Made by a program: the position numbers and the translations under genes
Shown: positions 39,531 to 64,000 of the stretch, piece after piece
How the letters are laid out: every line of letters begins with the position of its first letter
How positions within the stretch are numbered: position 1 is the first letter of the stretch
The notes under the pieces: model-generated
What the model was told of the DNA's origin: nothing
The model's database searches: none
Seen by the model: only the letters and a program-made list of their open reading frames with translations
NCBI GenBank assembly: GCA_943372135.1
Contig: CALRXH020000005.1
Location: 51,978-115,977, forward strand
From: Maricaulis salignorans
GTDB taxonomy: Bacteria > Pseudomonadota > Alphaproteobacteria > Caulobacterales > Aquidulcibacteraceae
DNA length: 64,000 nt
Reading direction: 5' to 3'

Positions 39531-39940
39531 ATGTGACCAATGAAGTTTTTCCAAGCCCAGAACGTGCAAAAGCCTTCTTTGGCGGCCAAGATGATGGGCC
39601 ATTCTGTATGGTCAATCTGTTGAAGTTCAAGGATAAGGCGACCTATCCCGATGGGGCGGAGCCTGAACTGACGGGCCGTGAAGCTTATATGCGCTATGGC
39701 GTAGCCGTCGTGGCGTGTGTCGAAGCCGTTGGCGGCAAAGCGCGCTTTTCCGGCATGGTCACCGATCTGATGCTGGGCCAAGTCGAAGAGCTGTGGGACA
39801 TGGTGGCAATTGCTGAATATCCTTCCCGAGCTGCCATGTTGGCCATGATAAAAACGCCAGATTATCAAGCCATCGAAGTCCACCGCATGGCAGGCCTTGC
39901 CGGTCAGTTGAATATTCGCACCAAGATGATGGGTGGCTAA
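39527..39940 (+). CDS. DUF1330 domain protein
   Basis: MVNLLKFKD.A.YPDG....TGREAYMRYG, WD.VAIAEYPSRAA, HR.AGLAGQLNI; ATGA-coupled to the dehalogenase. Confidence 0.85.
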   Translation: MNVTNEVFPSPERAKAFFGGQDDGPFCMVNLLKFKDKATYPDGAEPELTGREAYMRYGVAVVACVEAVGGKARFSGMVTDLMLGQVEELWDMVAIAEYPSRAAMLAMIKTPDYQAIEVHRMAGLAGQLNIRTKMMGG

Positions 39941-40635
39941 ACGCCGGGTCCCGTGAGGGGCTTTAAGTCTAGAATCGTAAATGGCTGATCGCGGGCTTCT
40001 TGCTTAAAGATGGCCAAGCTTTCGAAATCATGGGGGCCGGCAAAGTCTTGGAAGTGGTCCTGCAAGACCGCCAAGACTTGGGCCCGGAGCGATTGGTCGG
40101 GGATGCGCTCCGTCAGCGTCATGTGAAAGCGAAAGTCATCAAAAATATAGGGATATCCATATTCCCGTAATTGGCTTTCATGGCGAGGATTGATGCCCGC
40201 ATGTAAGCGACGCTTGAGATCAAATTCGCTCAATGGTGCGCGGAAGCTATCAAGTCCGACCACACAATCCGTATGCAGCGCCTGCATCTGCGGCGAGCCC
40301 TCCGCCAGCACAAAAGCTAAGAATGGCCCCAGAGCCGCGACCTGAATTTCCGCTTGGAAAGGGGCATGGCGGGCTGTGAGCGCGCTAAAGGCTGACAGAA
40401 GGCCCGCCTCATCTTGCTCAGGGTGCAACTCAAAAGGGGCCTTTAACGTTGCGTGGAAGCCATAGTGACGCGCGTCTTGCGTTAATTGATCGAGATCGAT
40501 CCCATCTAGGCCGCCAAGAACTGGTCGCTCACAGACTGTGTTGGTGAACGCATCCCGCCCAAGCCAAGCAGAGGCTGCCATGGTCAGAGGGTGCGCCACT
40601 GAGGGCGCATAATAAATCGCGTAACGGGGGATCAT
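39937..40635 (-). CDS. DUF1045 phosphonate metabolism protein (2H-phosphoesterase-like)
   Basis: RYAIYYAP, YGFHATLKAPF, YGYPYIFDDFRFHMTLT (two HxT motifs); coupled to phnM. Confidence 0.88.
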   Translation of the reverse strand: MIPRYAIYYAPSVAHPLTMAASAWLGRDAFTNTVCERPVLGGLDGIDLDQLTQDARHYGFHATLKAPFELHPEQDEAGLLSAFSALTARHAPFQAEIQVAALGPFLAFVLAEGSPQMQALHTDCVVGLDSFRAPLSEFDLKRRLHAGINPRHESQLREYGYPYIFDDFRFHMTLTERIPDQSLRAQVLAVLQDHFQDFAGPHDFESLAIFKQEARDQPFTILDLKPLTGPGV

Positions 40636-41777
40636 CCCACTACTTGTCCTTCACGCCAAACCGAGCGCACAATGGGCCAACCGTTGGGCGAAAGATAGAC
40701 CCGAACCATATCAGCCCGCTGCCCAACTTTAATCTCGCCGCGATCGGTCAATCCACACACATGGGCGGGATTTTTGGCCACTGTATCAATTGCGCGTTGG
40801 ATCGGCCAATAGAACGGGGCCTCTGCCAACATGAACGCTGCCCGGATCATCGACAACGGCACATAGTCTGACGACAATATGTCCAACAAGTCTTCCGCCG
40901 CGCAGGCTCGCGCACTTAAATTGCCAGAGTGGGAGGCACCGCGTACAAAGTTTGGGCCACCCATCACATTGAGCAAGCCGAGTTCGCGGGCGCGCTTGGC
41001 GGCATCTAAACTGACTGGAAACTCAGCGGCGACACAGCCATCTTGGTGGCTTTCGTTGACGTGTTCAATCGTCGCGTCATCATGGCTCATCAATGCGATG
41101 CCATACTCTTGGGCCAAAGCCACAATCGTTTCGCGGTTTTTCGGTCCAACCGAAGGGTCGCGCCAATTGGTCTCGGTGGCGAGCATCGAGGCCACTTCTT
41201 CCTTCGCCGTACCAGCTTTTTCGAGCCGCTCTTTAAAGCGATTGAGGTCGGCCGTTTGGCGTTGGCCGGGGGTATGATCCATGACCGAAAGCAGCTTGAG
41301 CCGGGGGTTGTCGAGATGGGGCTCAACCAAGCTCAAAAGCTCAGGATTTGTGATCTCACAGCGCAAATGGAGCAAATGCTCTGCCCGCAGCAAACCTTCA
41401 GAGCCCGCCTGATCCATAGCCGCAATCATTGGTGCCAAAGCCTCTTTGCGGTCGAGACCATCTTTGCGACCATGCAGACTGAGGCTGTCAAAGACGGTCG
41501 TGATACCCGCCATGATGCATTGGCCATCATGAGCCAAGGCTGCGCCCAAACTATCCCAGCGCGCACCCGGACGTGGCTGATAATGCTTTTCCAGATTGTC
41601 TGTGTGGATATCAACAAGGCCCGGAATGAGAAGGTCATCTCCGCAATCAACCGCGTCGCTATTTGCGTCGGTCGCAGCCTCAATAGCGGCGATTGCGCCA
41701 TCTTCCACGTGAATATGACCACTGAGGACGCCTTGCGGTGTTACGATCTGCCGAGAAAAAATTGCATGGTTCGTCAT
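40632..41777 (-). CDS. phnM: alpha-D-ribose 1-methylphosphonate 5-triphosphate diphosphatase (copy 1)
   Basis: PGLVDIHTDNLE, GITTVFDSL, HLRCE, MDHTPGQRQ, SHDD, AEFP, GGPNFVRGASHSGNLSA, LSSDYVP. Confidence 0.93.
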   Translation of the reverse strand: MTNHAIFSRQIVTPQGVLSGHIHVEDGAIAAIEAATDANSDAVDCGDDLLIPGLVDIHTDNLEKHYQPRPGARWDSLGAALAHDGQCIMAGITTVFDSLSLHGRKDGLDRKEALAPMIAAMDQAGSEGLLRAEHLLHLRCEITNPELLSLVEPHLDNPRLKLLSVMDHTPGQRQTADLNRFKERLEKAGTAKEEVASMLATETNWRDPSVGPKNRETIVALAQEYGIALMSHDDATIEHVNESHQDGCVAAEFPVSLDAAKRARELGLLNVMGGPNFVRGASHSGNLSARACAAEDLLDILSSDYVPLSMIRAAFMLAEAPFYWPIQRAIDTVAKNPAHVCGLTDRGEIKVGQRADMVRVYLSPNGWPIVRSVWREGQVVG

Positions 41778-41877: not shown

Positions 41878-42210
41878 TCATTTCAGTGTCTCGCCGACGC
41901 GGACCAACGTCCCGTCTGGGTCCACCAGCCGAAACTCATCTGCGCCCCAGTCCATGTGCAATAATGTCGCCTCAGCTTCTTTCGCCCCTGCGGGCACGTT
42001 TTCGCCGCGCAGATAAACTCTCTGACCAACTCCTGTTTGAGGATCAGCCACAGACGCAAACTGAAGCTCTACCTGGCCAGACTGCATCAGCAATAGGTCA
42101 GGATAGGTTCGCGCCACGCTGAAACCTAGCCGACCATAGAATGCCGCCGTCGCCGCAAAGTCGAAAGATGGCAAGACAGGGCTTGCCGAAGTGGCGCGCC
42201 AAGCGCTCAC
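41878..42210 (-). CDS. VOC/glyoxalase (bleomycin-resistance protein-like)
   Basis: SPVLPS.D..AT.AFY..LGF, DWG..EF.LVDPDG.LVR; ATGA-coupled to phnL. Confidence 0.85.
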   Translation of the reverse strand: MSAWRATSASPVLPSFDFAATAAFYGRLGFSVARTYPDLLLMQSGQVELQFASVADPQTGVGQRVYLRGENVPAGAKEAEATLLHMDWGADEFRLVDPDGTLVRVGETLK

Positions 42211-42911
42211 GCAGCGGCCTTGTATTCCGACACATTGAATAAACGCGTGGCCACCGCGTCGCGCACATCATGGTCATGGAAAATGCCGACCATGGCGGCA
42301 CCCTTGGCCAAGGCCGCATTGATCAGTTCCACCACGATGGCGCGATTGGCGGCATCCAGCGAAGCGGTAGGCTCATCCAACAGAAGGACCGGATATTCGC
42401 GAATGAAGCTTCGTGCGATATTGACGCGTTGTTGCTCCCCACCAGAGAAAGTTGACGGCGGCAATTCCCAATGGGCTTCTGGCAAACGCAAAGCTTGCAG
42501 AAGGGTGATCGCCCGCTCGCGTGCTTCTTCCAGCTCGACGCCATTTTCAAGAAGCGGCTCAATGACAAGATCGAGTGTAGAGACCCGTGGGATGACCCTC
42601 AGGAACTGACTGACGTAGCCTAATGTCCGTCGTCTGATCTCCAGCACCTGATGGGGCGGTGCCTTGGTGATATCCACGGGCGCACCGTCGTGGCTGACGA
42701 AAACCCCGCCCGACGTCGGCAAATAATTGCCATAGATGGTCCGCATCAGGGTCGACTTCCCGACACCGGATTCACCTGCCAAAACCACGCACTCGCCTGG
42801 CATGACTTCCAGTTTGAGGGCCTCAAAGACGCCAATCGACGTGGCACCTTGATTATGCAGGGTGAAAATCTTGCTTAGATCATCAACGCGAATGGCGGCT
42901 TCTTGGGTCAT
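42207..42911 (-). CDS. phnL: C-P lyase system ABC-type ATPase PhnL
   Basis: LSKIFTLHNQG, GESGVGKST, GYVSQFLRVIPRV, PSTFSGGEQQRVNIAR, GIFHD. Confidence 0.95.
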   Translation of the reverse strand: MTQEAAIRVDDLSKIFTLHNQGATSIGVFEALKLEVMPGECVVLAGESGVGKSTLMRTIYGNYLPTSGGVFVSHDGAPVDITKAPPHQVLEIRRRTLGYVSQFLRVIPRVSTLDLVIEPLLENGVELEEARERAITLLQALRLPEAHWELPPSTFSGGEQQRVNIARSFIREYPVLLLDEPTASLDAANRAIVVELINAALAKGAAMVGIFHDHDVRDAVATRLFNVSEYKAAA

Positions 42912-42960
42912 GGGAGGATCGCTTCAAACAAAGGCCAAAGAGGATGGAACTAAGGGTGCG

Positions 42961-43779
42961 TTAGATTTGCAGCACACTTGAGACCAATAATTGGGTGTAG
43001 GGATGTTGTGGGTCGTCGAGCACTTGATCGGCAAGGCCTGTCTCAACCACATGACCGCCCTTCATCACCATCAAGCGATCCGCCATCAAGCGGGCGACAG
43101 CCATGTCATGCGTGACGATGATCGCAGCGAGCCCGAGATCACGCACCAACTCGCGCAACAAGTCCAGCAAACGGGCTTGTACAGACACATCTAGGCCGCC
43201 AGTCGGCTCGTCCATGAAGACAAGGCGCGGGTTGTGGATCAGATTGCGGGCAATCTGAATGCGCTGTTGCATACCGCCGGAGAAATTCCGGGGCTTATCG
43301 TCAACCCGACCCAAATCAAGCTCAACCCGGCTCAACCAATCCATCGTGGATTGGCGCATGTCGCCATAATGGCGCCGTCCGAGGTTCATCAATGGCTCAG
43401 CAACATTGGCACCACCTGACACGCGCATTCTTAGGCCATCGCGCGGATTTTGATGCACAAAGCCCCAATCTTCGCGCTGCATACGGCGGCGGTCTGGCTC
43501 AGACAAATCATAAATGTCGACCAAGCCGTGACGACGGGAGTTGAAGGCAATGGACCCAGATGAAGGGGCCAACTTGCCGGAAATGCAGTTTAGAAGGGTA
43601 GTTTTGCCGGAGCCACTTTCACCCACGATGCCTAAAACTTCACCGGGCCGCATCTCAAAGCTGATATCCAAGCAACCGGCGACATGGCCGTAATGTTTGG
43701 TCAAGTTCGAGACACGCAACAGCGGTTCCACTGTGCCGACAGATTGGGAAGAAGTCGGCCGATCCAAAACTTCAGTCAT
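42961..43779 (-). CDS. phnK: C-P lyase system ABC-type ATPase PhnK
   Basis: GESGSGKTT, WGFVHQNPRDGLRM.VS.GANV.E, FSGGMQQR.QIARNL, DVSVQARLLDL, DDPQHPYTQLLVSS. Confidence 0.95.
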   Translation of the reverse strand: MTEVLDRPTSSQSVGTVEPLLRVSNLTKHYGHVAGCLDISFEMRPGEVLGIVGESGSGKTTLLNCISGKLAPSSGSIAFNSRRHGLVDIYDLSEPDRRRMQREDWGFVHQNPRDGLRMRVSGGANVAEPLMNLGRRHYGDMRQSTMDWLSRVELDLGRVDDKPRNFSGGMQQRIQIARNLIHNPRLVFMDEPTGGLDVSVQARLLDLLRELVRDLGLAAIIVTHDMAVARLMADRLMVMKGGHVVETGLADQVLDDPQHPYTQLLVSSVLQI

Positions 43780-43781
43780 GG

Positions 43782-44723
43782 CTATACTTCCTCTGCCGCG
43801 ATTTCGGTCTCAATGTGTGCAAGCGCGTGACCAGCCATCGGTCCTGCATGACCCTTCTCACGGCGGTCTGCGCAATAATGGCTGTCGGAGCAGACAAACA
43901 TATGCTCGCCTTTGTCGTCGAGGACGACCTCGTCGAGATAGGAGTCGTTCGCGCCGCATAGGGCACAAACTTCGTCCCAGCTTTGTGTCTCAAACGGATA
44001 ATCTTCAAAGTCCAAGCTACGCACCCGCGTAAATGGCGGAACCGCATAGATCCGCTTTTCACGACCGGCACCAAACAACAGGATGGCTGGGTTCATGTGC
44101 ATTTTGGGATTATCGAACTTGGGGATGGGCGATGGGCTCATCAAATAGCGCTCATCAATCATCACCGGATAACCAGCGGTGGCCGCAATCCGTCCGTAGG
44201 CGGATATATTTTCATAAAGCGAGACATATTGCAGGCCATATTCGGCGTAAGCATGCATAGCGCGTGTCTCGGTTTCACGTGGCTCCAAGCCTCGTAAAGG
44301 TTCGGGCTGCGGCACTTGGAACACCATGATCTGACCATCCGCCAAGGGCTGCTCAGGGATGCGGTGCCGCGACTGGATGATCGTCGCTTCGCTGGTGTCT
44401 TCGGTTGTGGCTACGTCTGCCACTGTCGCGAAAAACCGGCGAATGGAGACGGCATTGGTGGTATCGTCGGCCCCTTGGTCGATGCACTTGTAAACGTCGT
44501 CAGGGCCAATGATTGCCGCGGTCAGTTGGATACCGCCTGTACCCCAACCATAAGGCACGGGCATCTCGCGTGAGCCAAAGGGAACTTGATAGCCGGGTAT
44601 TGCCAAAGCCTTCAAAATAGCGCGGCGGATCATCCGCTTGGTCTGCTCATCCAGATAGGCGTAGGTGTAATAGCGGTCTTCTGGTGCGGCATTGGCGCGC
44701 GCGGGTGCTTCAGTAGCGGTCAT
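43782..44723 (-). CDS. phnJ: C-P lyase radical SAM subunit PhnJ
   Basis: YAYLDEQTKRMIRRA, GWGTGG, DQGADDTTNA, CX2CX21CX5C (CALC...FVCSDSHYC). Confidence 0.97.
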   Translation of the reverse strand: MTATEAPARANAAPEDRYYTYAYLDEQTKRMIRRAILKALAIPGYQVPFGSREMPVPYGWGTGGIQLTAAIIGPDDVYKCIDQGADDTTNAVSIRRFFATVADVATTEDTSEATIIQSRHRIPEQPLADGQIMVFQVPQPEPLRGLEPRETETRAMHAYAEYGLQYVSLYENISAYGRIAATAGYPVMIDERYLMSPSPIPKFDNPKMHMNPAILLFGAGREKRIYAVPPFTRVRSLDFEDYPFETQSWDEVCALCGANDSYLDEVVLDDKGEHMFVCSDSHYCADRREKGHAGPMAGHALAHIETEIAAEEV

Positions 44724-45853
44724 TCCGCGGCCTCCTTCATGTGCGCTGTTTGCTCTGCCAAGGCTTTTGCTTTGGCATCAAAGAACTCCCGACGCAGACG
44801 ACGCAGGAATTGAAGGTCAGCTTGGAAGTCAACGTAATGCGGCAGTTTGAGGTGCTGAACAAAGCCTGACGCTTCCACCACGTCGGAGTGATAGAGCACA
44901 AATTCCTCATCCTGACAGGGCGCTTGGCCTTCTTCGCCCAACTCGCGGCCGCGAAGTGCGCGGTCCACAATCGACATGCTCATCGCTTTGCGTTCATTGT
45001 GGCCAAAGGTCAGACCATAGCCACGCGTGTATTGTGGTGCCTGCTCAGCAGAGCCTGCAAAGCCCGACAACATGATGCATTCTGTCATCGGCAAGTCTGC
45101 CAACTCAATTTCAAAGCCAAGTTCATCAGGTGTAAAACCGACACTGACTTCGCCCATGCGGATCTCGCCGCACAAGGGGTGGGTGGAGCCCCAACCGCGT
45201 TGGCTAGAATAAGCAAGGCTCAATAAGAAGCCTTCATCGCCGCGTGCAAGAGCTTGCAAACGTTGGTCGCGATCGGCTGGGAAGGCCATCGGCTCGCGGG
45301 TCAAGTCATAGGGTTGTGCTGAAGTATCTGTAACCGGGTCGCCTTCCAACAAGCCTTCATGGGCAAAGACTTGGGCAATGGTCGCCAATTGCGTCGGCAT
45401 AACTTCTTCAGATACTTGAGCCGGCGGGACTTCATGGCCGCCTTCGGCTGCCAGCTTGAAGTCCAACAGACGGTGGGTGTAATCAAACGTTGGCCCTAAG
45501 ACCTGCCCACCTGGAATGTCCTTGAAGGCAGCAGAAACGCGGCGCTGGACGGCCATGTTCGCAGTTTCAATCGGTGTCGAAGCGCCAAAGCGCGGTAAAG
45601 TAGTCCGGTAGGCACGCAACAGAAAGATGGCTTCTGGGAGATCGCCGCGCGATTGCTTGATCGCCAGAGCGGCCAAATCTGGATCGTAGCAAGAGCCTTC
45701 AGCCATTACACGATCAACGGCCAAGCTCATTTGTTCGCGAATTTGAGCCACGCTCAACTCTGGAACGGAGGGATCGCCACGGCGGACTTCGCCCAGCCAA
45801 GTGTGGGCGTTGGTGATTGCGCGTTCGCCGCCCTTAACTGCTACATAAGCCAT
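44720..45853 (-). CDS. phnI: C-P lyase subunit PhnI
   Basis: MAYVAVKGGE, AIKQSRGD..EAIFLLRAYRTTLPR, GGQVLGPTFDYTHRLL, SGFVQHLKLPHYVDFQ. Confidence 0.97.
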   Translation of the reverse strand: MAYVAVKGGERAITNAHTWLGEVRRGDPSVPELSVAQIREQMSLAVDRVMAEGSCYDPDLAALAIKQSRGDLPEAIFLLRAYRTTLPRFGASTPIETANMAVQRRVSAAFKDIPGGQVLGPTFDYTHRLLDFKLAAEGGHEVPPAQVSEEVMPTQLATIAQVFAHEGLLEGDPVTDTSAQPYDLTREPMAFPADRDQRLQALARGDEGFLLSLAYSSQRGWGSTHPLCGEIRMGEVSVGFTPDELGFEIELADLPMTECIMLSGFAGSAEQAPQYTRGYGLTFGHNERKAMSMSIVDRALRGRELGEEGQAPCQDEEFVLYHSDVVEASGFVQHLKLPHYVDFQADLQFLRRLRREFFDAKAKALAEQTAHMKEAAE

Positions 45854-45855
45854 GC

Positions 45856-46473
45856 TTATTCCCCTTTAGTCTGAATGCGGGTGGTACGCGGGATGGATAC
45901 AAGCGTGGCTTCAGCGCACAGCATCACATCAATCCCGAATTGAAAATGGGCTACAAGGTCGGCACGTTCTGACCAAAAGCTATCTGGTAGGCCTTGCGGC
46001 GCAATTTCGGCGATCGTTTCAATCCCTGGCCCTTCGAGCACCAAATTCAGACCCGCCTCAAGATCTGGCACCATCACAATCACGGTGGTCGCTAGGTCTG
46101 GATATTTGGCATCACCTTGGTTGAAACCTGACAACATCTGAGCCGCGAGCCCTGCATGCGACAGAACGGCAAACGCGGCCTCCTCAGCATGATCGGTCAG
46201 CGGACAGGATGTATGGAACCGAAGCCAACTCTCGATCGCGCCGCCGCGCAAGCTTCGCTCTAGCCAAACCAACGTGTCTTGGTCGGCCAAGGTTAGAAGA
46301 ACAGCTGCCGCCGCCGCATTGAGCCCCATCGGCGGAGTCAAAGCTTTGCCAACTTCTACCCGAGTGCCGGGCTGCGCCGTGGCGGTCAAAAGCGCGCGAA
46401 ACACACTTTGGCTGTCTCCGACAGGCTCGGAAAAGCCGGGGCGCAGTTCTGCAAGATTAAGGGGGGCATTCAT
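45856..46473 (-). CDS. phnH: C-P lyase subunit PhnH
   Basis: PGFSEPV.DSQSVFRALL, LLTLAD.DT, G...YPD.ATT, L.GPGI, F.FGID. Confidence 0.93.
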   Translation of the reverse strand: MNAPLNLAELRPGFSEPVGDSQSVFRALLTATAQPGTRVEVGKALTPPMGLNAAAAAVLLTLADQDTLVWLERSLRGGAIESWLRFHTSCPLTDHAEEAAFAVLSHAGLAAQMLSGFNQGDAKYPDLATTVIVMVPDLEAGLNLVLEGPGIETIAEIAPQGLPDSFWSERADLVAHFQFGIDVMLCAEATLVSIPRTTRIQTKGE

Positions 46474-46475
46474 GA

Positions 46476-46961
46476 CTAGGCCTTCCGATCTCGGACCATG
46501 GTGAAAAACTCGACCTGCGTGGCCTTTGCCTTGCGGCTGATAGCTTCGCGACGCTCATCGGCGGCTTGTCGCAAAGGCTCAATCAGACCGTCGCGCACTT
46601 GGTCATGCCAAACCGGGGACTGCAGCATCGCATCAGCAACAGCTGCGACAAAAGCATGCGCCTTATCTCGACCGGAGACATAACCAATGCCTGTCTCCCC
46701 TGTGGCCAAACGGATCGCGCATCGCGTCACCGTCATCTCGCCAAGGTTAAACGGATTACCTGCGCCACCCGTGCGGCCGCGCACCATCACCATGCCGGTT
46801 TCAGCAGGGCGCAGGACCTGGCTTTCTGGCGCAACCACATCCTCCCAGAGCCTTAGAACTTCTGATGCGGGGGCCTTTGCTAGGGTCGACAACCAGCCCT
46901 GGCGGGCGGTACTGCCCGTCAGGGCATTGTCAACAAATTCGTCTGCGTACGATTGAGTCAT
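46476..46961 (-). CDS. phnG: C-P lyase subunit PhnG
   Basis: RQGWLSTLA, LRPAETGMVMVRGR.GG.G.PFNLGEMTVTRC, FFTMVR; start ATG 46961. Confidence 0.93.
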   Translation of the reverse strand: MTQSYADEFVDNALTGSTARQGWLSTLAKAPASEVLRLWEDVVAPESQVLRPAETGMVMVRGRTGGAGNPFNLGEMTVTRCAIRLATGETGIGYVSGRDKAHAFVAAVADAMLQSPVWHDQVRDGLIEPLRQAADERREAISRKAKATQVEFFTMVRDRKA

Positions 46962-47015
46962 GGCGAACAACTTTTGAATTGATTGTAATTGGACTTGCAT
47001 TATGCTATCAGTTCA

Positions 47016-47068
47016 TTAGTATAAATTCAACAGATTAATTGTGTCATTGCTGTGACTTAATATAAATT
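47016..47068. promoter_or_regulatory. AT-rich phnG/phnF divergent control region with repeated operator-like motif
   Basis: TTAGTATAAATT (47016-47027) and TTAATATAAATT (47057-47068). Confidence 0.5.
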
Positions 47069-47097
47069 TGTTGATTATCATGTAAAAAGGCAATAAA

Positions 47098-47850
47098 ATG
47101 TCAATTATTATTGATGAAAAAAGCCAATCGACAACAAATTGGCGAGCAATCGTCCAGTGGCTCGAAGTAGAAATTTCTGAGCGTCGATTGGTACCGGGCG
47201 ACAAATTGCCAACTGAGCTACAAATCTGTGAGCGATTTTCGACAAATCGTCATACGACTCGCCGCGCGCTGGCGCACCTGCAGTCGAAGGGGCTTGTCGA
47301 ATCGACCCAAGGGCGCGGCAGTTTTGTTCGGCGACCAACCTTGATCTACAGTATCGGCAAACGAACCCGGTTTTCTGCAGGCCTGCAAGAGCAAGCCGCT
47401 AACCCTGAAACCAAGACATTGACGTTAGATACCCGCCCTGCAGAGCCACATGTGGCGGCAGCACTTGGGTTGAAAGGTGGGTCCCCGACAATCTTTTTGG
47501 AGCGCCTCGGATTTGCCAACGGCCAAGTCATCTCGGTTGCTAGACATTGGTTTGCGTTTGAACGTTTCCCTACGTTTGCTGTCTTCTATGCGCGATCAAA
47601 GTCGATCACCCAAACCCTGATTGATTGTGGCGTGCCGGATTATACGCGGCTGCGCACGAAGATCAGTTCGCGCTTACCGACCGCGCAGGAAACCCAGCTC
47701 TTACACGTGCCCAGACATATTCCTTTATTGGTGACACATGCTTGGAACGTCGATGGCCTTGGCCGACCGCTAGAATATGGCGAAGCCCGAATGGCCTCTG
47801 ATCGTGTGGAAATAACCATCGAAAACGAACGACTGCCAGACCTAGACTAA
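47098..47850 (+). CDS. phnF: GntR/HutC-family phosphonate regulator (wHTH + UTRA)
   Basis: GDKLPTE......FSTNRHT.RRAL..L...GLV...QGRGSFV, RTRFS, DYTR..T.I.SR; divergent from phnG. Confidence 0.92.
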   Translation: MSIIIDEKSQSTTNWRAIVQWLEVEISERRLVPGDKLPTELQICERFSTNRHTTRRALAHLQSKGLVESTQGRGSFVRRPTLIYSIGKRTRFSAGLQEQAANPETKTLTLDTRPAEPHVAAALGLKGGSPTIFLERLGFANGQVISVARHWFAFERFPTFAVFYARSKSITQTLIDCGVPDYTRLRTKISSRLPTAQETQLLHVPRHIPLLVTHAWNVDGLGRPLEYGEARMASDRVEITIENERLPDLD

Positions 47851-56433: not shown

Positions 56434-57271
56434 CCCTTTGCATGGCAGCGGCCTCTGTCGGATCTAAGGCTATCCCACCGCCAAGTTTTGCGGCCAAAAA
56501 GGTCATCGCTTCCGGGCGCTCTTGATGTAGCGCGATATGGATGCCTACCAATTGATAGCGATCCGCTTCCGGCAGGTCATTTCTGACGACAAGGCCCGCT
56601 AACGCCGTCGGTCGTCCGCGCCACGCCTCAACCACATCGCCACACAAAACGACTTTGGGATCATCGCCACGGCAGAGCCTTTGGCGTGCGCCTGCCGTGA
56701 GAATCAATGCATCGCCCTGTCCGGCACGCAATGCCGCAAGACCTGCTTGCTCGTCCGCGACAAACAGTTCTGGCTTAAAGCTCTTGGTATCCGCGCCAAA
56801 ATCGGCCAAGCCTTGCAAGGGCACCTGATGGCTGGCCGCTAGTTTAGAAATGAAGATCGGTCGACTGCCAGCAAGCTTAACTGGCGTATCTCGGCCAGAA
56901 GTTTTGAGCGTCAAGGCCACCGCCAGAACACGACCGGTTATGGCGTCAGCCCGAGGTGCCAGAATTGGGCGAGCTACTTTGTTGACCGGTTCAAAAGAGG
57001 GTTGATCCAAAACAGCCAAGTCCAACTGACTTTCTTGCAAGGCAGTAGCCACTGCTTTGCCGTCTTCATAGCCACAGAGCACCACAGGCTTACCCAGTCG
57101 CCCTTCAAGATGCTTGCGGTAAGCCGCTGCTGCCGCGTCACTTGGCGTGGCGGTGCAACCTGATTCAGTAAGGCCCGCGATGCCCACTCGAAAGCCTGCC
57201 GGGGGTGTTTGTGCTGTGGCGGGCTGCATCAAGGCCAGCAGAATAAGGATGAAACCAAGCACGCGGATCAT
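56423..57271 (-). CDS. Divergent PhnD-like periplasmic binding protein
   Basis: Signal peptide; PhnD-like layout (HLEGRLGKPV, LDLAVL, LAVALTLKTSG, LAALRAGQGDA, LVVRNDLP) without STSG or GGH; between phnD and phnE. Confidence 0.65.
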   Translation of the reverse strand: MIRVLGFILILLALMQPATAQTPPAGFRVGIAGLTESGCTATPSDAAAAAYRKHLEGRLGKPVVLCGYEDGKAVATALQESQLDLAVLDQPSFEPVNKVARPILAPRADAITGRVLAVALTLKTSGRDTPVKLAGSRPIFISKLAASHQVPLQGLADFGADTKSFKPELFVADEQAGLAALRAGQGDALILTAGARQRLCRGDDPKVVLCGDVVEAWRGRPTALAGLVVRNDLPEADRYQLVGIHIALHQERPEAMTFLAAKLGGGIALDPTEAAAMQRGAR

Positions 57272-58269
57272 GGCTTAGCACTCCCATTGCTTGGCTTCTG
57301 GGCCGGGGCAGCACGGCGTTCGGCGATTTCCGTGCGACGCATTTCGACCACGGCCTGATAGTCAGCAGGTGTCATGGGTTGCATATCAGATCCCTCTAGA
57401 AGCCCGATATCGACCCATAGTTGCGGATCCTCGTAAGCCAGCGCGGCCATCGCCCCACGGGTGATGTCTTGAAAGGCTTGCGGACGGTCTGTGCGGATCA
57501 CATAGGGCGAGTTGGGCATTGGCCCTGCTGTCCAGACGATCCGATAATCAGAGACCTTCACCGCGCCTTTTCGCGCCAAAGTGTAGAGAGAGCCCGAAGT
57601 AAATCCGGTTTCTGGCGTGCCGCCACTGGCGATCAAAAAGATTGCGTCAAATTGACCGTTCGCCAAAGCCAAAACCGACTGCGTATGGCCACCGCTCATG
57701 GCGGTTTTGCCAAAGAACGTGTCAGGATTTTTCCCTTGCTGGCGCATCGCCCAGCGCGGGAACAAATAGCCAGAGGTCGAATTGAAATCGACATAGCCCA
57801 AGGACTTGCCGCGCAAGTCCTCAATCGTGCGATAAGGACTGTCTGCCTTGACAATTAGCGCTGAGTAATATCCCGAAGAGCCCTCTGCCGTGCGCAAAGC
57901 CAGAAACGGTGTTACCTTCTCACCCATCTGCTCACGCGCATTGGCATAGGCAGCGCCACCCATTTGCGCGAGCTCTAGCTGGCCAGACGCCATGGCTTGA
58001 ATAACGCCATTGTAGTCTGCAGCTTGGAAGACTTCGACCTTTAGCCCAGTGATGCGGTTGAGGTATTTTTGGTAAGTCGTCCATCGCGCCAAAGTGGTGG
58101 AACTATCTTCGCCCGACGTTGCACCGATGCGCAATTGGCCGACTTCTTTCTGCCAGCCTGTGAGCTCGGTATCTGGCTTATCAGAGCCACAAGCAGAGAG
58201 CCCTGAAAGGAAAAGCACGACGCAAAGCGACTTGAGCCAGGTTGATATCTGCACCTGCTTTACCCCCAC
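57268..58269 (-). CDS. phnD: Phosphonate ABC transporter substrate-binding lipoprotein
   Basis: Lipobox LSAC, AADYNGVIQAM, YYSALIVKADSP, DFNSTSGYLFP, GGHTQSVLALANGQFDA. Confidence 0.93.
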   Translation of the reverse strand: MGVKQVQISTWLKSLCVVLFLSGLSACGSDKPDTELTGWQKEVGQLRIGATSGEDSSTTLARWTTYQKYLNRITGLKVEVFQAADYNGVIQAMASGQLELAQMGGAAYANAREQMGEKVTPFLALRTAEGSSGYYSALIVKADSPYRTIEDLRGKSLGYVDFNSTSGYLFPRWAMRQQGKNPDTFFGKTAMSGGHTQSVLALANGQFDAIFLIASGGTPETGFTSGSLYTLARKGAVKVSDYRIVWTAGPMPNSPYVIRTDRPQAFQDITRGAMAALAYEDPQLWVDIGLLEGSDMQPMTPADYQAVVEMRRTEIAERRAAPAQKPSNGSAKP

Positions 58270-58387: not shown

Positions 58388-58425
58388 AAAAAGAAAGGGC
58401 CTGCCGGTTCAAACCAGCAGGCCCC
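58388..58425 (-). terminator. Intrinsic terminator after TonB receptor 1
   Basis: Minus strand GGGCCTGCTGG-TTTGAA-CCGGCAGGCCC followed by TTTCTTTTT. Confidence 0.85.
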
Positions 58426-58470
58426 CAACTTTTAGATCAGATCGTCAAGCGCCCCAGAAGGGCGGCTAGA

Positions 58471-61281
58471 TTAGAAGTTGATCCGTACACCCATGATATA
58501 ACGTGGGCCGAATGTTTCGCCTTCGATCGGGAAGGCGCGGGTGTCGCCGTAGCGAATGGCCTGCTCATTGGTCAGATTGACCGCGTCGAAGAAGTATTCG
58601 ACGTTCTTGCTGACTTCATAGCGGATCGACAAGTCCATCTCGCCATCGTCATCCCAGAACACATCGCCATTGGTCACTGGCACAAGTTTGCTGTTGATGA
58701 CGTTGTAGGTGCCGACACCTTGCAACCAAGTCGTACGGAACTGGTAGGTCAAGCGAGCCGAGAGGCCATATTTCTCGTAGATCAAGGACAGATTGTAGAG
58801 ATAATCTGAGGTGCCCGGCAGGCTAACTTTGCGCGCTGGGACGACAGCGGCATTCGTGCCCGCTGGGATTTCGACTTCAGATTCCGTGAAGGTTGCATTG
58901 GCGCCAAAGCCAAAACCACCCAAGAAATCAGGCAAGCCTGCTTCTTCAACCCACTTTTCAGCATTTTGCGACACAGCGATTTCGAAGCCGCTGAGATAGC
59001 CGTTGCCGCCGTTGCGAATGGTGGTCAATGCGTAGTTCGACCGCAAATTCGTCCCAACGTCGAGATCCGTACGGCCGAATACATCGGTTTGCGTGAACAA
59101 CACATCTTTGATGTCCTTGTAGAAGGCACCAACCATGAAATAGCCGCCGCTCTTTTGATACCATTCGAAGTAAGCATCAAAGCCAGTTGAGCGCTCTGGG
59201 CCTGCATCTGGGTTACCGCCAGAGATCGTTTGGGTCACATCGTTAACAACAAAGTTTGGACGAATATCGTCAAACTCTGGCCGTGATGCACCGGTTGTAA
59301 GGCCGAAACGAAGCTTCATTTCATCGTTCAGGTCAAAGTTAACGTGAGCGCTTGGGTAGAAGAGCGTGTCTTCGGCTTCCGTTTTGACCAAGCTGAACGC
59401 GTCGGTCGTGACAGATGGCGTCAAGTCAACAAGGGCTTGACCTTCATTCTTGGTGCGCTCAGCGCGCAAGCCAACAATGACATTGCCCCAGTCTTGCTTC
59501 CAAGTGGCCATAGCATAGCCGGCCACAATGTTCTCGCTGACTTCATAAAGGTTCAAGCTTTGATCGACAAACGAACCGATATTCTTCGCCTTCAAATCTG
59601 CCGCCAAGGAGTCGACCCGTGTCTTGCCCTGATAACGGAACTGATAACCCAGTTGCAATTGGCCCAAATAAGGACGGTCAATTGCAATGTCGTTGAAGGT
59701 GATCGGTGCACGGCCTGCGGCCGCCACTTGTGCGGCTGTGGTCGTGAAGACTGTGGAGAATGATTCCTTGGTACGGTCGGTGAAAGCACCGCCGACTTTC
59801 AAGGTTGTTTCTCCACCAAACACTGTGAAGTCACGGCTCGCATCAAAGCGACCCGTCACAGCTGTGGTTTCGTCTTGAGCTTCGCGCGAGCTGATGTTGA
59901 GGAAGGTGACTGGGAAAGCCTCAATTGAGTTAACGCGCTCACCACGCGAACGAACGGCTGTTGCACCAGTACCAGTCACCACAGTCCGATACAGTTGAAC
60001 GATGTTGAAGTCATCGTCACCGAAGAAATACTCAACGGTTGGGCGATCCGTGATCGTCGAGGGGCTGGCGAAGTTTGGCGTTCCTGGCGCATTCAAGCCG
60101 TCGACTGATTCAGTGAAGTTCAAGCGGGCAGACGCGTCCCAACCTGCAAATTCGAAGTCTGCACCAAGTGTGTTGGTGAAGATCGATTGCTCATAATCGA
60201 GGGAGTTGAAGTTCGACTGGATTTGCGCACCATAAACAACGCCACGGTCGGGTGTGTTGCCGTTACAAATGTCAAACGCGCCAGAGGTTGTTTGTGGGGC
60301 GCGCACGGCTGGGCAGGCGGATGTGCCGGTTGCGGTAGCACCATTGTCCAAGCGGAAAATGAAGTTGCTGCGCAATTCAACGTCGGTGAAGTTGGTGAAG
60401 ATCGAGCTGAAGAACACTTTGGTGGTGTCGTTTACGCGATAATCTACGCGGCCCGAATAGGACTTGTTGCCACGGGTCAAGCGATAAGGCTTGTTCTCAT
60501 ACTCACGTGCCCAACGACGGTCTTCATAGCCTGCACGACGGTCAACGCTGCCACCGCCGGTTTGATAGGGGTCGGTTTCCCAATTGTCGGTGACTTGGTC
60601 ACGGCTATAGAACGAGCCTTGCAGCAAAACGCCGAGCTTGCCATCCATAAAGCGGTTCGCAACAACGAAAGAGGTGTCGATTTCAGCACCACCGCCCAAA
60701 GTCATGATGCCGGCGGATGCTTTGATATTGGCTTTGAAGCCAGGATAGTCGAATGCAGAACGTGTGCGGACGTTGACGTTACCAGCGACTGTGTCTCCGC
60801 TCATGTCGGCAGTGATCGCCTTGGTTACGATAACTTGGGCCGCCAAAACCGATGGAATATTGTCAAAGCGCGAAGAGCGACCTTCGGGTGATACAACGTT
60901 GACGCCGTCAAACGACAGCGTTGCCCAGTTGTTTGGCAGGCCGCGCAAGTTGACATAACGCGCTTGACCTTGGTCGCGCTCAATCGCGACGCCAGGCAGG
61001 CGGCCAATTGCGAAAGCAATGTTTTGGTCTGGCAGCTGGCCAATCGAGTCAGCCGAAACCACGGCGACCAAGGATGGCGAGTTGCGCTGAATTTGAAGCG
61101 CTGCGCGTTCAGAGTCCGCAATCGGACGAACACCACGAACAACGATGGTTTCAGCCGCCGTTTCTTCTGCTGGTGCAGGCGCGGTGGTTGCCGCATTTTG
61201 AGCAGTCGCTGCGGTTGCCGCAAGCAGTGCAAACGAGCCAACTGCGCCCATGAGGGCAGCGCGTGTAAACTTAGTGGTCAT
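58471..61281 (-). CDS. TonB-dependent receptor (copy 1)
   Basis: Signal peptide, TonB-box-like ETIVVRG, plug LPDQNIA.AI.RLPGVAIERDQGQARYVNLRG, C-terminal RYIMGVRINF. Confidence 0.95.
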   Translation of the reverse strand: MTTKFTRAALMGAVGSFALLAATAATAQNAATTAPAPAEETAAETIVVRGVRPIADSERAALQIQRNSPSLVAVVSADSIGQLPDQNIAFAIGRLPGVAIERDQGQARYVNLRGLPNNWATLSFDGVNVVSPEGRSSRFDNIPSVLAAQVIVTKAITADMSGDTVAGNVNVRTRSAFDYPGFKANIKASAGIMTLGGGAEIDTSFVVANRFMDGKLGVLLQGSFYSRDQVTDNWETDPYQTGGGSVDRRAGYEDRRWAREYENKPYRLTRGNKSYSGRVDYRVNDTTKVFFSSIFTNFTDVELRSNFIFRLDNGATATGTSACPAVRAPQTTSGAFDICNGNTPDRGVVYGAQIQSNFNSLDYEQSIFTNTLGADFEFAGWDASARLNFTESVDGLNAPGTPNFASPSTITDRPTVEYFFGDDDFNIVQLYRTVVTGTGATAVRSRGERVNSIEAFPVTFLNISSREAQDETTAVTGRFDASRDFTVFGGETTLKVGGAFTDRTKESFSTVFTTTAAQVAAAGRAPITFNDIAIDRPYLGQLQLGYQFRYQGKTRVDSLAADLKAKNIGSFVDQSLNLYEVSENIVAGYAMATWKQDWGNVIVGLRAERTKNEGQALVDLTPSVTTDAFSLVKTEAEDTLFYPSAHVNFDLNDEMKLRFGLTTGASRPEFDDIRPNFVVNDVTQTISGGNPDAGPERSTGFDAYFEWYQKSGGYFMVGAFYKDIKDVLFTQTDVFGRTDLDVGTNLRSNYALTTIRNGGNGYLSGFEIAVSQNAEKWVEEAGLPDFLGGFGFGANATFTESEVEIPAGTNAAVVPARKVSLPGTSDYLYNLSLIYEKYGLSARLTYQFRTTWLQGVGTYNVINSKLVPVTNGDVFWDDDGEMDLSIRYEVSKNVEYFFDAVNLTNEQAIRYGDTRAFPIEGETFGPRYIMGVRINF

Positions 61282-61340
61282 TGGAATCCCCTTTCGCAGG
61301 TGCAACACACCTGTTCCGTGGGCGGCGATACTGTTTGGAG

Positions 61341-61556: not shown

Positions 61557-61999
61557 ATGACCGAGTTCAACACCGCCCAACCCGCTCTCCGCGTCCTTGT
61601 GATCGGCATCGGTGGCTCCGGCAAGTCGACCTTTCCGGAAAAGCTGGCAGGCGAGGCCGGGATGGCACAAGCGGAACTTGGCCCAATTAACTGGCGGCCT
61701 GGCTGGAATGATCGCTCTAGAGAAGAGATCAAGTCCTTTTTTGCCGATGTGGATCAAGTCACGTCTCAAAGAGGCTGGGTGTTGGCCGGGAATTCCGAAA
61801 CCAACCTTTCATATTACCCCGCGTCACCCATTTGGTGTGGATGGATCTGCCTTTGTGGCTGGTGATAGCGCAAGTCATCCCCCACTCGATCCGCCGTGCT
61901 GAGGCAAAAGATAGAGACGTGTTTGAGGACTGTCGTGCGGAATGGCCGCATCTTACTCGCGCCTACCACCCCATTCGCTGGGCCTTGTCTACTCATTAA
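61557..61999 (+). pseudogene. Frameshifted FlaR/adenylate-kinase-like P-loop gene
   Basis: RVLVIGIGGSGKST, INWRPGW, WVLAGN in frame 1; homology continues in another frame from ~61814 (LPRVTHLVWMDLPLW...HPIRWALSTH*). Confidence 0.75.
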
Positions 62000-62000: not shown

Positions 62001-62131
62001 TGACCGGCCGTGAAGCCTATATGCGCTTTGCCGCCGACGGCTTCGACACACGCCACAACGGCCATACCATAGCGCATATAGGCTTCACGGCTAGTCAGTT
62101 GAACATTTGCACCAAAGTGATGCGTGGCTGA
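62001..62131. pseudogene. Scrambled relic of a DUF1330 gene
   Basis: 62023-62100 is the reverse complement of 39666-39743 (70/78 identical by manual alignment); 62094-62131 matches 39903-39940 (32/38). Confidence 0.85.
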
Positions 62132-62196
62132 GCCAAGCTTCGTTCAAAGCACTGCCTGGCCCGCTCTATGTCGGTCACATAGAGCGGGCCTGCACT

Positions 62197-64000
62197 TTAG
62201 TACTTAAAGCGAACGCCAATCATATAGCGAGGACCGAAGGTCTCATACTCAATCGGATAGAGTTCACTGTCCGCAAAGCGGCGACCTGGGCTATCGGCGA
62301 GATTAATGCCATCGAACGTCAGTTCGAAATTGTCGTTCAACTGATAGCGTGCCGAGACCGACAGGCTTTCAGAGTCGTTCCAGTAAATGTCGCCATTGCC
62401 GTCTGGAACCAGAGCACCATTGACGGTGGCATAGCCGCCCACGGACTGCAGCCATTTGGTGCGGTATTGATAGGCAATGCGGGCTGACAAGCCATACTTT
62501 TCATAGGTCAGGCCAACATTGGTTACCAGATCAGACGCACCGGGTAGATCAACAACGCGCAAGGGTGCTGTGCCAATTGCTGGGACATTGATCTCGCTAT
62601 CATTGAAATTGGCAGACAGGCGGACGCCAAAGCCTTCCAGCCAATCTGGACCTCCCATGGACTCCACCAACTCCTCAATCGTATGATTGAAGACAACCTC
62701 AACCCCCATCAACTTGCCATCACCGCCATTGCGTATGGTGGTGAAATTGTAGCCAGAACGATCGCGGTCAGGCGTATTCAGGATAGTGCTGCCGAATGTG
62801 CCGCTTTGGGTGAACAAGGCATCCTTGATGTCTTTGTAATAGAAACCGATTTGGAAGTAGCCCTGTGACTTCATATACCATTCGAAATACGCATCAAAGC
62901 CAACCGACTTTTCAGGCTTAGCCTCAGGATTGCCGCCTGTGATGAGGCCGGGAGCATCATCAATGGAGAAGTTTGCCGCCAAATCATCAAAGTCAGGACG
63001 CGCCGCGCCGGTGTTCAGGCTAAGGCGGACCTTCATCTCTTCATTCAGGTCATAATTCACATGGACGCTGGGATAGAACAGCGTGTCATCGCTTTTGAGC
63101 TGCGTTAGGACGCGCGTGCCGCCGATGATTGGCAGGGCCTTTGACGTATTCTCAGTGCGCTCAACGCGGCCGCCGATAATGACACTGCCCCAGTCCTGCT
63201 TGACAGTCGCCATGGCATATGCGGCCGAGATATCTTCTGTCACCTCAAAATACTCACCCGAGCCATCCTGATAGGAACCGATCCGGCGATCCTTCAGGCT
63301 TTGGATGAAGTCGCCAACCTTATCGCCAGAATAATAGCGGAATGTATAGCCAAGCGCATATTTGCCCTTGAAAGCGGTATCGATGGCAAAGTCATTATAG
63401 GTCGGAAGGGCCACGCCGGCAGCCGTGAAGTCAGCTGCGCGGGCACGGTATTGGGTCAAGCGCCGCTTCTTGTCGCGCGTGGTGTACAAGCCACCGACCT
63501 TTAGAGTCGCTTCAGAGCCAAACAGGCTGATGTCACGGCTGGCGTCGAACTTACCCGTCCAGGCCGCAGTCAGATCGCCACCCTCGGCATCTATGATATC
63601 GATGAACAGCATGGGGAAGGCTTCGACGCTACTGACCGCGGGTCCTTTTGAGCGGGTCGTGCCTGTCAAGACTGTGTTGAACAGACGCACCGTATTATTG
63701 GTCACATCCGTGAAGTCATAATCGACAGTTGGTCGAGATGTGATTGTCGAGGGACTCTCGAACGACGGTGTCCCGGTTAAGTCTTGGCCATCCTCGGTCT
63801 CTGTGAAATTCAAACGCCAATCGACGTCCCAACCAAAACGCGCATGCTTCCCGCCGATCGTATTGGTGAAGATGTATTCCTTGATGTCACCCGTGCGAAA
63901 ATTCCAGTTCATCCGGACGCCATAGACGGTGCCTTTGTTCGGCAGGTTGCCGGTGCAAATGTCATTGGCGGCACTGGTTACGATCGTGGTCACAGTCCCA
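62197..64000 (-). CDS. TonB-dependent receptor (copy 2, 5'-partial)
   Basis: Beta-barrel portion collinear with copy 1 (YAMAT.KQDWG.VI.G.R.ERT.N, GFDAYFEWY, YEKYGLSAR, ETFGPRY..GVR); runs off the window end. Confidence 0.93.
   Translation of the reverse strand, partial: GTVTTIVTSAANDICTGNLPNKGTVYGVRMNWNFRTGDIKEYIFTNTIGGKHARFGWDVDWRLNFTETEDGQDLTGTPSFESPSTITSRPTVDYDFTDVTNNTVRLFNTVLTGTTRSKGPAVSSVEAFPMLFIDIIDAEGGDLTAAWTGKFDASRDISLFGSEATLKVGGLYTTRDKKRRLTQYRARAADFTAAGVALPTYNDFAIDTAFKGKYALGYTFRYYSGDKVGDFIQSLKDRRIGSYQDGSGEYFEVTEDISAAYAMATVKQDWGSVIIGGRVERTENTSKALPIIGGTRVLTQLKSDDTLFYPSVHVNYDLNEEMKVRLSLNTGAARPDFDDLAANFSIDDAPGLITGGNPEAKPEKSVGFDAYFEWYMKSQGYFQIGFYYKDIKDALFTQSGTFGSTILNTPDRDRSGYNFTTIRNGGDGKLMGVEVVFNHTIEELVESMGGPDWLEGFGVRLSANFNDSEINVPAIGTAPLRVVDLPGASDLVTNVGLTYEKYGLSARIAYQYRTKWLQSVGGYATVNGALVPDGNGDIYWNDSESLSVSARYQLNDNFELTFDGINLADSPGRRFADSELYPIEYETFGPRYMIGVRFKY

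Follow-up and report, generated by a model that had tools for sequence, protein, structure and literature searches.

Bacteria obtain phosphorus from phosphonates mainly through C-P lyase, which is also how methylphosphonate gives rise to aerobic methane in lakes and oceans. The 64,000-nt stretch of Maricaulis salignorans DNA considered here (the window; contig CALRXH020000005.1, positions 51,978 to 115,977) contains a C-P lyase (phn) locus in which the core enzymes are accompanied by a series of further genes, hereafter the extras. Our overall reading, which we regard as probable, is that the locus constitutes a 22-kb inserted and complete C-P lyase pathway, likely to be controlled by phosphate starvation, that belongs to a monophyletic freshwater variant and in which the extras would take on additional roles. 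The core chemistry is not new. However, we could not find described the arm formed by phnF, a second phnM gene (phnM2), a gene for an EEP-fold phosphoesterase, and a gene for an ABCB-type half transporter, nor the divergent second PhnD (PhnD2), the transglutaminase-like protein, or the recurrent linkage to TonB receptors. The novelty lies in a conserved five-protein accessory set; the roles of PhnM2, the EEP protein, the transporter, and the transglutaminase-like protein are those that we infer below.

The phn locus is an insertion of 22.2 kb behind a DUF1330 gene, extending from 39.94 to approximately 62.1 kb of the window. This conclusion follows from an empty site in three congeners that lack phn genes (G005, G014, and G015), in which the DUF1330 gene (39527-39940; homologous up to 39938) is joined straight to the region of a TonB-dependent receptor gene (TBDR2), and from a 36-nt direct repeat at the borders. 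The repeat corresponds to the last 36 nt of the DUF1330 gene, which mark the left border (39903-39938, plus strand), and recurs with 86% identity at 62094-62129. The repeat sequence is single-copy in the phn-less congeners, where it abuts the TBDR2 region, and homology to these genomes picks up again at window positions 62090-62156. The right junction (62001-62131) is composed of scrambled DUF1330 pieces, comprising the direct repeat and an inverted 78-nt scrap. No integrase gene was found within the 22-kb insertion, which has the flanking direct repeat and the empty site.

Gene calls were based on an open reading frame (ORF) listing combined with Pfam and NCBIfam profile searches of the window, and all 23 genes proposed by an earlier sequence-only reading were recovered at the same positions. 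They form three divergent or convergent units on the minus, plus, and minus strands, respectively. In window order, the first comprises the genes for DUF1045, PhnM1, a small VOC-like protein of 110 residues, and PhnL, K, J, I, H, and G; the second comprises those for PhnF, PhnM2, EEP, and the ABCB-type half transporter; and the third comprises those for the transglutaminase-like protein, PhnN, a TIGR03308 hexapeptide transferase, PhnC, PhnE2, PhnE1, PhnD2, PhnD1, and the receptors TBDR1 and TBDR2, the last of which runs off the window end. Eight gene junctions overlap, by 1-11 nt each.

PhnG, H, I, J, K, L, N, C, and F, both PhnE proteins, and both PhnM proteins score above curated cut-offs. 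The genes phnL, K, J, I, H, and G (42207-47000, minus strand) encode the C-P lyase core together with two ABC-type ATPases. PhnJ is 72% identical to its E. coli counterpart, and its G44 and C253-X2-C256-X21-C278-X5-C284 align with E. coli Gly32 and Cys241/244/266/272; PhnJ retains three cysteines for the [4Fe-4S] cluster, one for the thiyl radical, and the glycine of the glycyl radical. PhnM1 (40632-41777, minus strand; NF011984 469.5 bits, TIGR02318 426 bits) is 41% identical to E. coli PhnM and is assigned as the RPnTP diphosphatase, and PhnN (52508-53053, minus strand; TIGR02322 210 bits) as the ribose 1,5-bisphosphokinase. The phosphonate ABC importer is encoded by phnC, phnE2, and phnE1 (53755-56433, minus strand; TIGR02315 311 bits, TIGR01097 253 and 243 bits) and by the gene for the phosphonate-binding lipoprotein PhnD1 (57268-58269, minus strand; TIGR01098 193 bits, PF12974 172 bits), which possesses a lipobox and NSTSG and GGH motifs that align with E. 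coli PhnD. In a comparison with three congeners, the ratio of nonsynonymous to synonymous substitution rates (dN/dS) of the core genes from phnL to phnG was 0.01-0.13. Because the families exceed their curated cut-offs and the catalytic residues of PhnJ are conserved, the core pathway is well supported as complete and apparently in working order, in agreement with the sequence-only reading, which had noted the CX2CX21CX5C motif of PhnJ. By family membership, the PhnD1/PhnE1E2/PhnC importer would take in the phosphonate, PhnG, H, I, and L would ribosylate it with ATP, PhnM1 would strip pyrophosphate, PhnJ with PhnK would break the C-P bond by radical S-adenosylmethionine chemistry with release of the alkane (methane from methylphosphonate), and PhnN would form phosphoribosyl pyrophosphate. 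A second phnD/phnE-type importer is encoded elsewhere in the genome (contig C22:30444-32233), and the PhnD encoded there shares 39% identity with the E. coli protein, against only 30% for PhnD1. Among the phn genes and the extras, this type of importer is the only element duplicated elsewhere in the genome, in a check from which the ABC-ATPase and receptor families were excluded.

The absence of phnP and phnO, previously noted for the window, extends to the whole host genome (3.02 Mb, 99.98% complete). The best genome-wide match to the PhnP profile (TIGR03307) reaches 28.3 bits against a cut-off of 272.25, and that to the PhnO profile (NF007530) 22.5 bits against a cut-off of 142; tblastn searches of the genome with the E. 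coli proteins returned, for PhnP, nothing beyond metallo-beta-lactamase proteins at 25-28% identity and, for PhnO, no match at E values up to 0.01. No substitute copies of either gene are thus present elsewhere. The lack of PhnP and PhnO is the ordinary state for loci of the DUF1045/RcsF type. DUF1045 is found in 78 of 223 phn operons (PMC3266647), has been proposed, as RcsF, to replace PhnP (PMC3840354), and is induced in Phaeobacter under phosphorus stress, as are PhnI, J, L, and M (PMC10132767); moreover, a marine fosmid that carries a 2H esterase gene and no phnP enabled E. coli to grow on methylphosphonate (PMC3840354). The DUF1045/RcsF-type 2H phosphoesterase of the present locus (39937-40635, minus strand; PF06299 165.6 bits, cut-off 24.3) contains two HxT motifs (FHATL and FHMTL), shows a dN/dS of 0.10-0.13, and is encoded by a gene that overlaps phnM1 by 4 nt; a PDB sequence search with the protein returned nothing informative. 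In view of its fold class, its gene context, and the functional fosmid, DUF1045 is likely to be the stand-in for PhnP, a well-precedented role in which it would open the 5-phosphoribosyl 1,2-cyclic phosphate.

The hexapeptide-repeat transferase (53069-53758, minus strand) belongs to the phn-specific family TIGR03308 (287.5 bits, cut-off 201.65); its next-best family matches are Vat and CatB, and it resembles xenobiotic acetyltransferases. Its gene overlaps phnC by 4 nt and has a dN/dS of 0.02-0.04, and the protein is 83-85% identical to the copies in Sphingomonadales. A role as a replacement for PhnO was considered and downgraded: marine clusters that carry this transferase did not enable E. 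coli to grow on the 1-aminoalkylphosphonates aminomethylphosphonate or 1-aminoethylphosphonate (PMC3840354), and the enzyme is therefore not a simple substitute for PhnO. It may instead modify the substrate or a toxic analogue.

The locus recurs in related bacteria, and its closest relatives are found in Aquidulcibacter and in metagenome-assembled genomes (MAGs) of Caulobacteraceae/Hyphomonadaceae, which assigns the window to a freshwater bacterium of the Caulobacterales. Among 41 related genomes, phnJ and the transglutaminase-like orthologue are present in exactly the same nine: the genus itself contributes 8 of its 16 genomes, the present one among them, and another genus contributes one. 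The full gene order is also conserved in Sandarakinorhabdus sp. AAP62 and Polymorphobacter, both of the Sphingomonadales, at protein identities ranging from 46% (EEP) to 89% (PhnK), and is identical in loci L018-L023. More distant versions, in a Hyphomonadaceae MAG (L086, with two PhnD copies), a metagenome contig (L087), and a further genus (G017), keep the phnF-phnM2-EEP-transporter arm, DUF1045, the hexapeptide gene, and a nearby TonB receptor; the transglutaminase-like gene is missing from L086 and L087, and directly follows the transporter gene in G017. The view that the extras are real genes, co-oriented, coupled, and conserved along with phnJ is thereby borne out. In a tree of PhnI and PhnJ, the eight arm-bearing loci, whose hosts are Aquidulcibacter, other Caulobacterales, and two genera of Sphingomonadales, form one clade (support 100/99). 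As a comparison set, 40-kb neighborhoods were inspected around phnJ in 30 further alphaproteobacterial loci, each from a different family. Of these loci, 20 contain DUF1045, 8 contain the hexapeptide gene, and several have a second PhnM-like gene, and none of the 30 contains EEP, the transglutaminase-like gene, the VOC gene, PhnD2, or related receptors. The sequences thus define a distinct, monophyletic freshwater variant, apparently shared in part by horizontal transfer, among Caulobacterales and Sphingomonadales (Sandarakinorhabdus and Polymorphobacter).

With regard to mobility, the congener G004 carries a diverged version of the island (L104 1-6447) in which, as in Sandarakinorhabdus, phnE2 and phnC are separated by genes for a PfkB kinase and an EamA transporter, and in which the transglutaminase-like protein is 57% identical to that of the window; thus, two versions of the island circulate in one genus. 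The different version in G004, the mixed orders of the hosts, and the strain differences at the island indicate that it has spread horizontally. Immediately after L087 lie transposase genes of the IS66 family and the gene for a phage-type integrase (17175-20747).

The arm begins with phnF (47098-47850, plus strand; TIGR02325 233.9 bits), which encodes a GntR/UTRA regulator, followed by phnM2 (47896-49029, plus strand). PhnM2 is a canonical-type PhnM (NF011984 433 bits, cut-off 260; TIGR02318 398 bits, cut-off 390.55). The two PhnM proteins of the locus are 41% identical to each other and 40-41% identical each to E. coli PhnM, and PhnM2 keeps all 85 columns that do not vary in an alignment of E. 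coli PhnM, PhnM1, and four PhnM2 sequences. Both fall within the canonical PhnM group, where the PhnM2 sequences form a separate clade (support 100/100) whose topology parallels that of the PhnM1 clade, with six members in each. These parallel clades imply that the duplication is older than the variant itself. The second PhnM-like gene that is common in Rhizobiales belongs to a different and deeply divergent paralogue clade. The EEP gene (49029-49766, plus strand; PF03372), which overlaps phnM2 by 1 nt and is thereby coupled to it, encodes a cytoplasmic phosphoesterase whose catalytic residues N7, E38, D160, N162, D201, and D233-H234 are invariant in 31 homologues and whose AlphaFold2 (AF2) model has a predicted local distance difference test (pLDDT) score of 93.4. 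A PDB sequence search with the protein gave nothing informative, and a fold search returned generic superfamily neighbors only. The last gene of the arm (49864-51675, plus strand; PF00664 and PF00005) encodes an ABCB-type half transporter, in which the transmembrane domain is fused to the ATPase domain; it scores below the MsbA and NdvA cut-offs, and its nearest half-transporters in the PDB are ABCB6, Atm1, and ABCB7.

Each PhnM copy of the locus is thus translationally coupled to a phosphoesterase, PhnM1 to DUF1045 and PhnM2 to EEP, and this is the reason for favoring a second step catalyzed by a PhnM and an esterase. PhnM2 and EEP would form a couple that mirrors PhnM1 and DUF1045 and that acts on 5-(tri)phosphoribosyl intermediates; it would either serve a different class of substrate or work as a salvage valve where PhnJ is unable to cleave a ribosyl-phosphonate. 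The transporter would carry the product or a by-product across the inner membrane. We put forward this specific chemistry only tentatively. It is also tempting to speculate, with somewhat less expectation of being right, that the phnF-controlled PhnM2-EEP-transporter arm represents an unrecognized branch of C-P lyase metabolism, to which PhnD2 and a TonB receptor and, in certain lineages, the transglutaminase-like enzyme also belong. This branch would serve either as a salvage or proofreading valve, in which ribosylated phosphonates refractory to PhnJ lose phosphate and are exported, or as a feeder that frees phosphonate headgroups from larger natural conjugates in lake cyanobacterial aggregates.

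The regulatory sequences suggest how the arm may be controlled. A gap of 97 nt (49767-49863) precedes the transporter gene, and this intergenic region is approximately 95% conserved between congeners, the dS of the flanking genes being approximately 0.4. When the Pho box was scored out of 14 as two 7-mers in an 11-bp phase, the gap was found to hold Pho-box-like repeats (49824-49852, plus strand; 11/14) that end approximately 12-22 nt before the start codon. An equivalent site (11-12/14) lies at a similarly short distance from the start codon in G012, L020, L086, and Polymorphobacter, which represent three lineages, and the chance of at least 11/14 in 78 nt is 0.0024. Matches of 10/14 occur in four other intergenic regions. 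The AT-rich sequence between the divergent phnG and phnF genes (47001-47097) is a putative control region in which sigma-70-like hexamers cluster and a Pho-box-like sequence (47041-47058) matches at 10/14; by eye, TTGTTG/CAACA-type repeats recur in phnG/phnF intergenic regions, from which no operator was established. Pho control of the transporter is suggested by these sites, although the signal is modest, and the island as a whole is probably under phosphate-starvation control.

The same observations bear on a different explanation, according to which the extras constitute a separate phosphate-starvation module (for membrane-lipid remodeling or scavenging of organophosphate esters, with a flippase for lipids or metabolites) that merely shares the Pho-regulated island and has no role in phosphonate metabolism. 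A transporter that is set off by a 97-nt gap with a Pho-box-like element to itself, and whose best matches are MsbA-like and Atm1-like families, would suit such a module, as would the occurrence of the transglutaminase-like family outside phn contexts. In addition, phosphatases seem to gather in the phnM2-EEP-transporter arm of variant loci: in G017 an alkaline phosphatase gene lies between phnM2 and EEP, and in two independent loci, G017 and L087, a Y_phosphatase3 protein is encoded after the TonB receptor gene (the added phosphatases are covered by L101/G017 5288-6814 and 14312-15544 and by L087 15945-17030). However, PhnM2 is of the canonical type and retains all conserved residues, and we know of no PhnM substrate other than a C-P lyase intermediate. 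Moreover, in seven of the eight variant loci EEP is coupled to phnM2 immediately 3' of phnF, and every locus examined in the EEP orthologue clade (at least 39% identity) is a phn locus, the first non-phn relative being just 36% identical. On balance, a module unrelated to phosphonates appears unlikely.

It might also be supposed that the extras have no function and are carried along with the island as passengers or as genes in decay. The VOC gene and TBDR1 do vary by strain, and a kinase-like gene at the right end (61559-61997, plus strand), which encodes an AAA_18-like P-loop protein, is a pseudogene with a frameshift near 61800 and is truncated by the junction scrap. However, the extras have intact frames and invariant catalytic residues, their order is kept across two bacterial orders at 46-85% protein identity, and their dN/dS values (0.02-0.27 for all extras, again relative to the three congeners) denote purifying selection. 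The values for PhnM2 (0.03-0.05), the transporter (0.03), and the hexapeptide gene together span 0.02-0.05, compared with 0.06-0.15 for PhnG, PhnH, and PhnN; that for EEP is 0.19-0.27. Given these low ratios and the invariance of the residues that form the active sites of PhnM2, EEP, and the transglutaminase-like protein, the extras are, as judged from their sequences, functional, and the passenger explanation is very improbable.

A third alternative is the one that the sequence-only reading had advanced, namely a pathway for large or substituted phosphonates, such as esters, phosphonoglycans, or phosphonolipid headgroups, in which TonB uptake would be followed by de-esterification by EEP, acylation and deacylation by the hexapeptide and transglutaminase-like enzymes, C-P cleavage, and export of the organic residue by the transporter. 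TBDR1 (58471-61308, minus strand; TIGR01782 555 bits), a receptor of the Xanthomonas/Caulobacter type, lies inside the insertion, and TBDR2 (62197-64000, minus strand, the C-terminal 600 residues) outside it; the two are 51% identical. A TonB receptor adjoins every variant locus examined, and in the Sandarakinorhabdus phn locus the genes for a TonB-dependent receptor, a kinase, and PhnD1 are translationally coupled. Intact homologues of the P-loop kinase adjoin TonB receptors in the congener G015, Sandarakinorhabdus, and L086, where the kinase gene likewise lies inside the phn locus, which points to a conserved receptor-kinase pair. A neighboring TonB receptor is a plausible device for dedicated outer-membrane uptake, and the adjoining one would provide the outer-membrane passage in the scheme favored here. 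However, the suggestion that the two receptors of the window are locus members heading a transport arm did not hold for TBDR2, which is resident because it is present in phn-less congeners with the empty site: its DNA is 82-93% identical to the gene directly after DUF1330 in G005, G014, and G015, and its protein is 94% identical in G012. The suggestion is weakened for TBDR1 as well, since the G012 island lacks both TBDR1 and the VOC gene and abuts TBDR2 directly, and since a terminator-like hairpin (58395-58426, minus strand; 14 bp, 9 G-C, followed by a T-run) separates TBDR1 from phnD1. TonB receptors beside phn loci vary between strains.

PhnD2 (56423-57271, minus strand; PF12974 50.5 bits) is a secreted, divergent PhnD-like binding protein that falls far short of the TIGR01098 cut-off (23.6 versus 112 bits). 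It lacks the Ser-Thr-Ser and His phosphonate-contact motifs of E. coli PhnD, and the replacing residues are not conserved even among PhnD2 orthologues. To this extent, its earlier description as degenerate is apt; however, the protein is conserved, has a signal peptide and four conserved cysteines, and shows a dN/dS of 0.06-0.09. It may confer a second ligand specificity. The altered pocket of PhnD2, the presence of neutral sphingomyelinase and sugar-6-phosphatase among the fold neighbors of EEP, and the further phosphatases in the arms of G017 and L087 would all accord with larger substrates. On the contrary, no signal peptide was detected on EEP or the transglutaminase-like protein, and therefore any de-esterification by them would be cytoplasmic. 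A PhnCDE-type importer takes up small phosphonates, and bulky conjugates would need trimming in the periplasm, where the locus places no hydrolase. Together with the resident status of TBDR2, the absence of TBDR1 from G012 and its separate termination, and the failure of hexapeptide-bearing clusters to support the use of 1-aminoalkylphosphonates in E. coli (PMC3840354), these points leave the pathway for substituted phosphonates with little direct support, and we consider it doubtful.

The remaining extras, the transglutaminase-like and VOC-like proteins, may be later, lineage-specific additions. The former (51684-52511, minus strand; PF01841) is a cytoplasmic Cys-His-Asp protein, the gene of which overlaps phnN by 4 nt. 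C154, H191, and D206 are invariant, the dN/dS is 0.10-0.13, and the AF2 model (pLDDT 95.6) is most similar in fold to uncharacterized bacterial "cysteine proteases", 3isr and TgpA; a PDB sequence search was uninformative, and the fold search gave generic superfamily neighbors only. Homologues in Rhizobiales (approximately 50% identity; L015 and L017, around 10001-13441) are convergent to uvrB, with no phn genes nearby, and this uvrB-side context is conserved housekeeping that is unrelated to phosphonates. A fusion of PhnN with the transglutaminase-like protein in G017 (a 465-residue open frame) was considered and rejected, as the ORF map shows none, the gene following that of the transporter on the same strand. 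The VOC gene (41878-42210, minus strand) is a lineage-specific insert between phnL and phnM1 with a dN/dS of 0.14-0.21. The assignment as a small VOC/bleomycin-binding-like protein rests on sub-threshold matches of the N-terminal half only to bleomycin-binding proteins (NCBIfam E 6e-9; PDB 1ewj E 5.6e-10), and the gene is absent from the loci of G012, L020, Sandarakinorhabdus, and Polymorphobacter. In E. coli, yjdN (formerly phnB), which encodes a small PF06983 protein presumably of glyoxalase/VOC-like fold, adjoins phnC (L088 13299-13742), a loose precedent for a VOC-type passenger beside phn genes.

Several observations weigh against the reading favored here, that of a Pho-controlled, complete pathway with a second PhnM-esterase couple. 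The fold neighbors of EEP (Tdp2, nocturnin, the mannose-6-phosphatase Bt3783, and neutral sphingomyelinase) are approximately equal in similarity and span nucleases, sugar phosphatases, and sphingomyelinases. The TIGR03223 score of DUF1045 (238.3 bits) lies just below the cut-off of 248.95. In a window-wide scan that allowed three mismatches, Pho-box sites were no more frequent than expected by chance. At 29-51% identity, the receptors next to the different variant loci are not orthologues; in addition, TBDR1 possesses a terminator of its own, and 39 receptors in total are encoded in the genome. Finally, the link of the transglutaminase-like protein to phosphonates may be recent or incidental, because its Rhizobiales homologues adjoin uvrB without phn genes.

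Compared with the phnCDEFGHIJKLMNOP operon of E. coli, the locus shares phnCDE, phnF, phnGHIJKLM, phnN, and the catalytic residues of PhnJ, and differs in the lack of PhnP and PhnO, the three divergent or convergent units, the presence of two copies each of PhnM, PhnD, and PhnE, and seven extra genes. It also resembles the DUF1045/RcsF-type phn clusters of alphaproteobacteria, betaproteobacteria, and marine bacteria (PMC3266647; PMC3840354; Agrobacterium CHLDO, PMC11494704; also Huang 2005, as cited in PMC3840354), with which it has in common the 2H phosphoesterase in place of PhnP, the hexapeptide-repeat transferase, a second PhnM-like hydrolase, a second PhnE, and the lack of PhnO. The transferase, the second hydrolase, and the second PhnE have been reported as embedded genes of unknown role (PMC3840354). 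By contrast, such clusters (0/30 sampled) contain neither EEP nor PhnD2, no transporter of the ABCB type, and no transglutaminase-like protein, and they do not show the linkage to receptors. The loci of Sandarakinorhabdus sp. AAP62 and Polymorphobacter, which are not annotated as phn loci of this kind, have the same succession of genes between DUF1045 and PhnD1, with both PhnM2-EEP-transporter and the transglutaminase-like gene in place; they differ in lacking the VOC gene, in having PfkB kinase and EamA transporter genes between phnE and phnC, and in having an intact P-loop kinase gene coupled between the receptor gene and phnD1. Accordingly, the designation "new system" applies only in part: DUF1045, the hexapeptide transferase, and a second PhnM were already published in clusters without PhnP and PhnO (PMC3266647; PMC3840354), whereas in the literature consulted no phn locus was described as containing an EEP enzyme, a transporter of the ABCB type, a transglutaminase-like protein, or a divergent second PhnD, and the literature on phosphonates or phnJ in Aquidulcibacter and Sandarakinorhabdus gave no account of the arm.

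The five conserved but unexplained proteins are candidates for unsolved steps in phosphonate use, namely the determination of substrate range, the fate of dead-end ribosyl-phosphonates, and passage through the outer membrane. As a lineage-specific and mobile version, the island could also serve as a marker by which it can be traced in freshwater metagenomes. Aquidulcibacter and Sandarakinorhabdus, which according to references given in PMC11089705 were both obtained as isolates from a eutrophic lake's cyanobacterial aggregates, occur in Microcystis bloom aggregates, in which phnJ transcripts from such bacteria are higher by day (PMC11089705).

Two features of the surroundings may be mentioned. 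Approximately 7 kb upstream of the island, outside the insertion, a gene at 32788-33108 (minus strand) encodes a zinc-ribbon protein with a YjdM/PhnA domain (PF03831, E 1.5e-26) that is 37% identical to E. coli YjdM. On the other side, three TonB receptor genes follow one another at and past the right end of the window (C5:112758, 116460, and 121577), and the island is thus located at the edge of a receptor-rich stretch.

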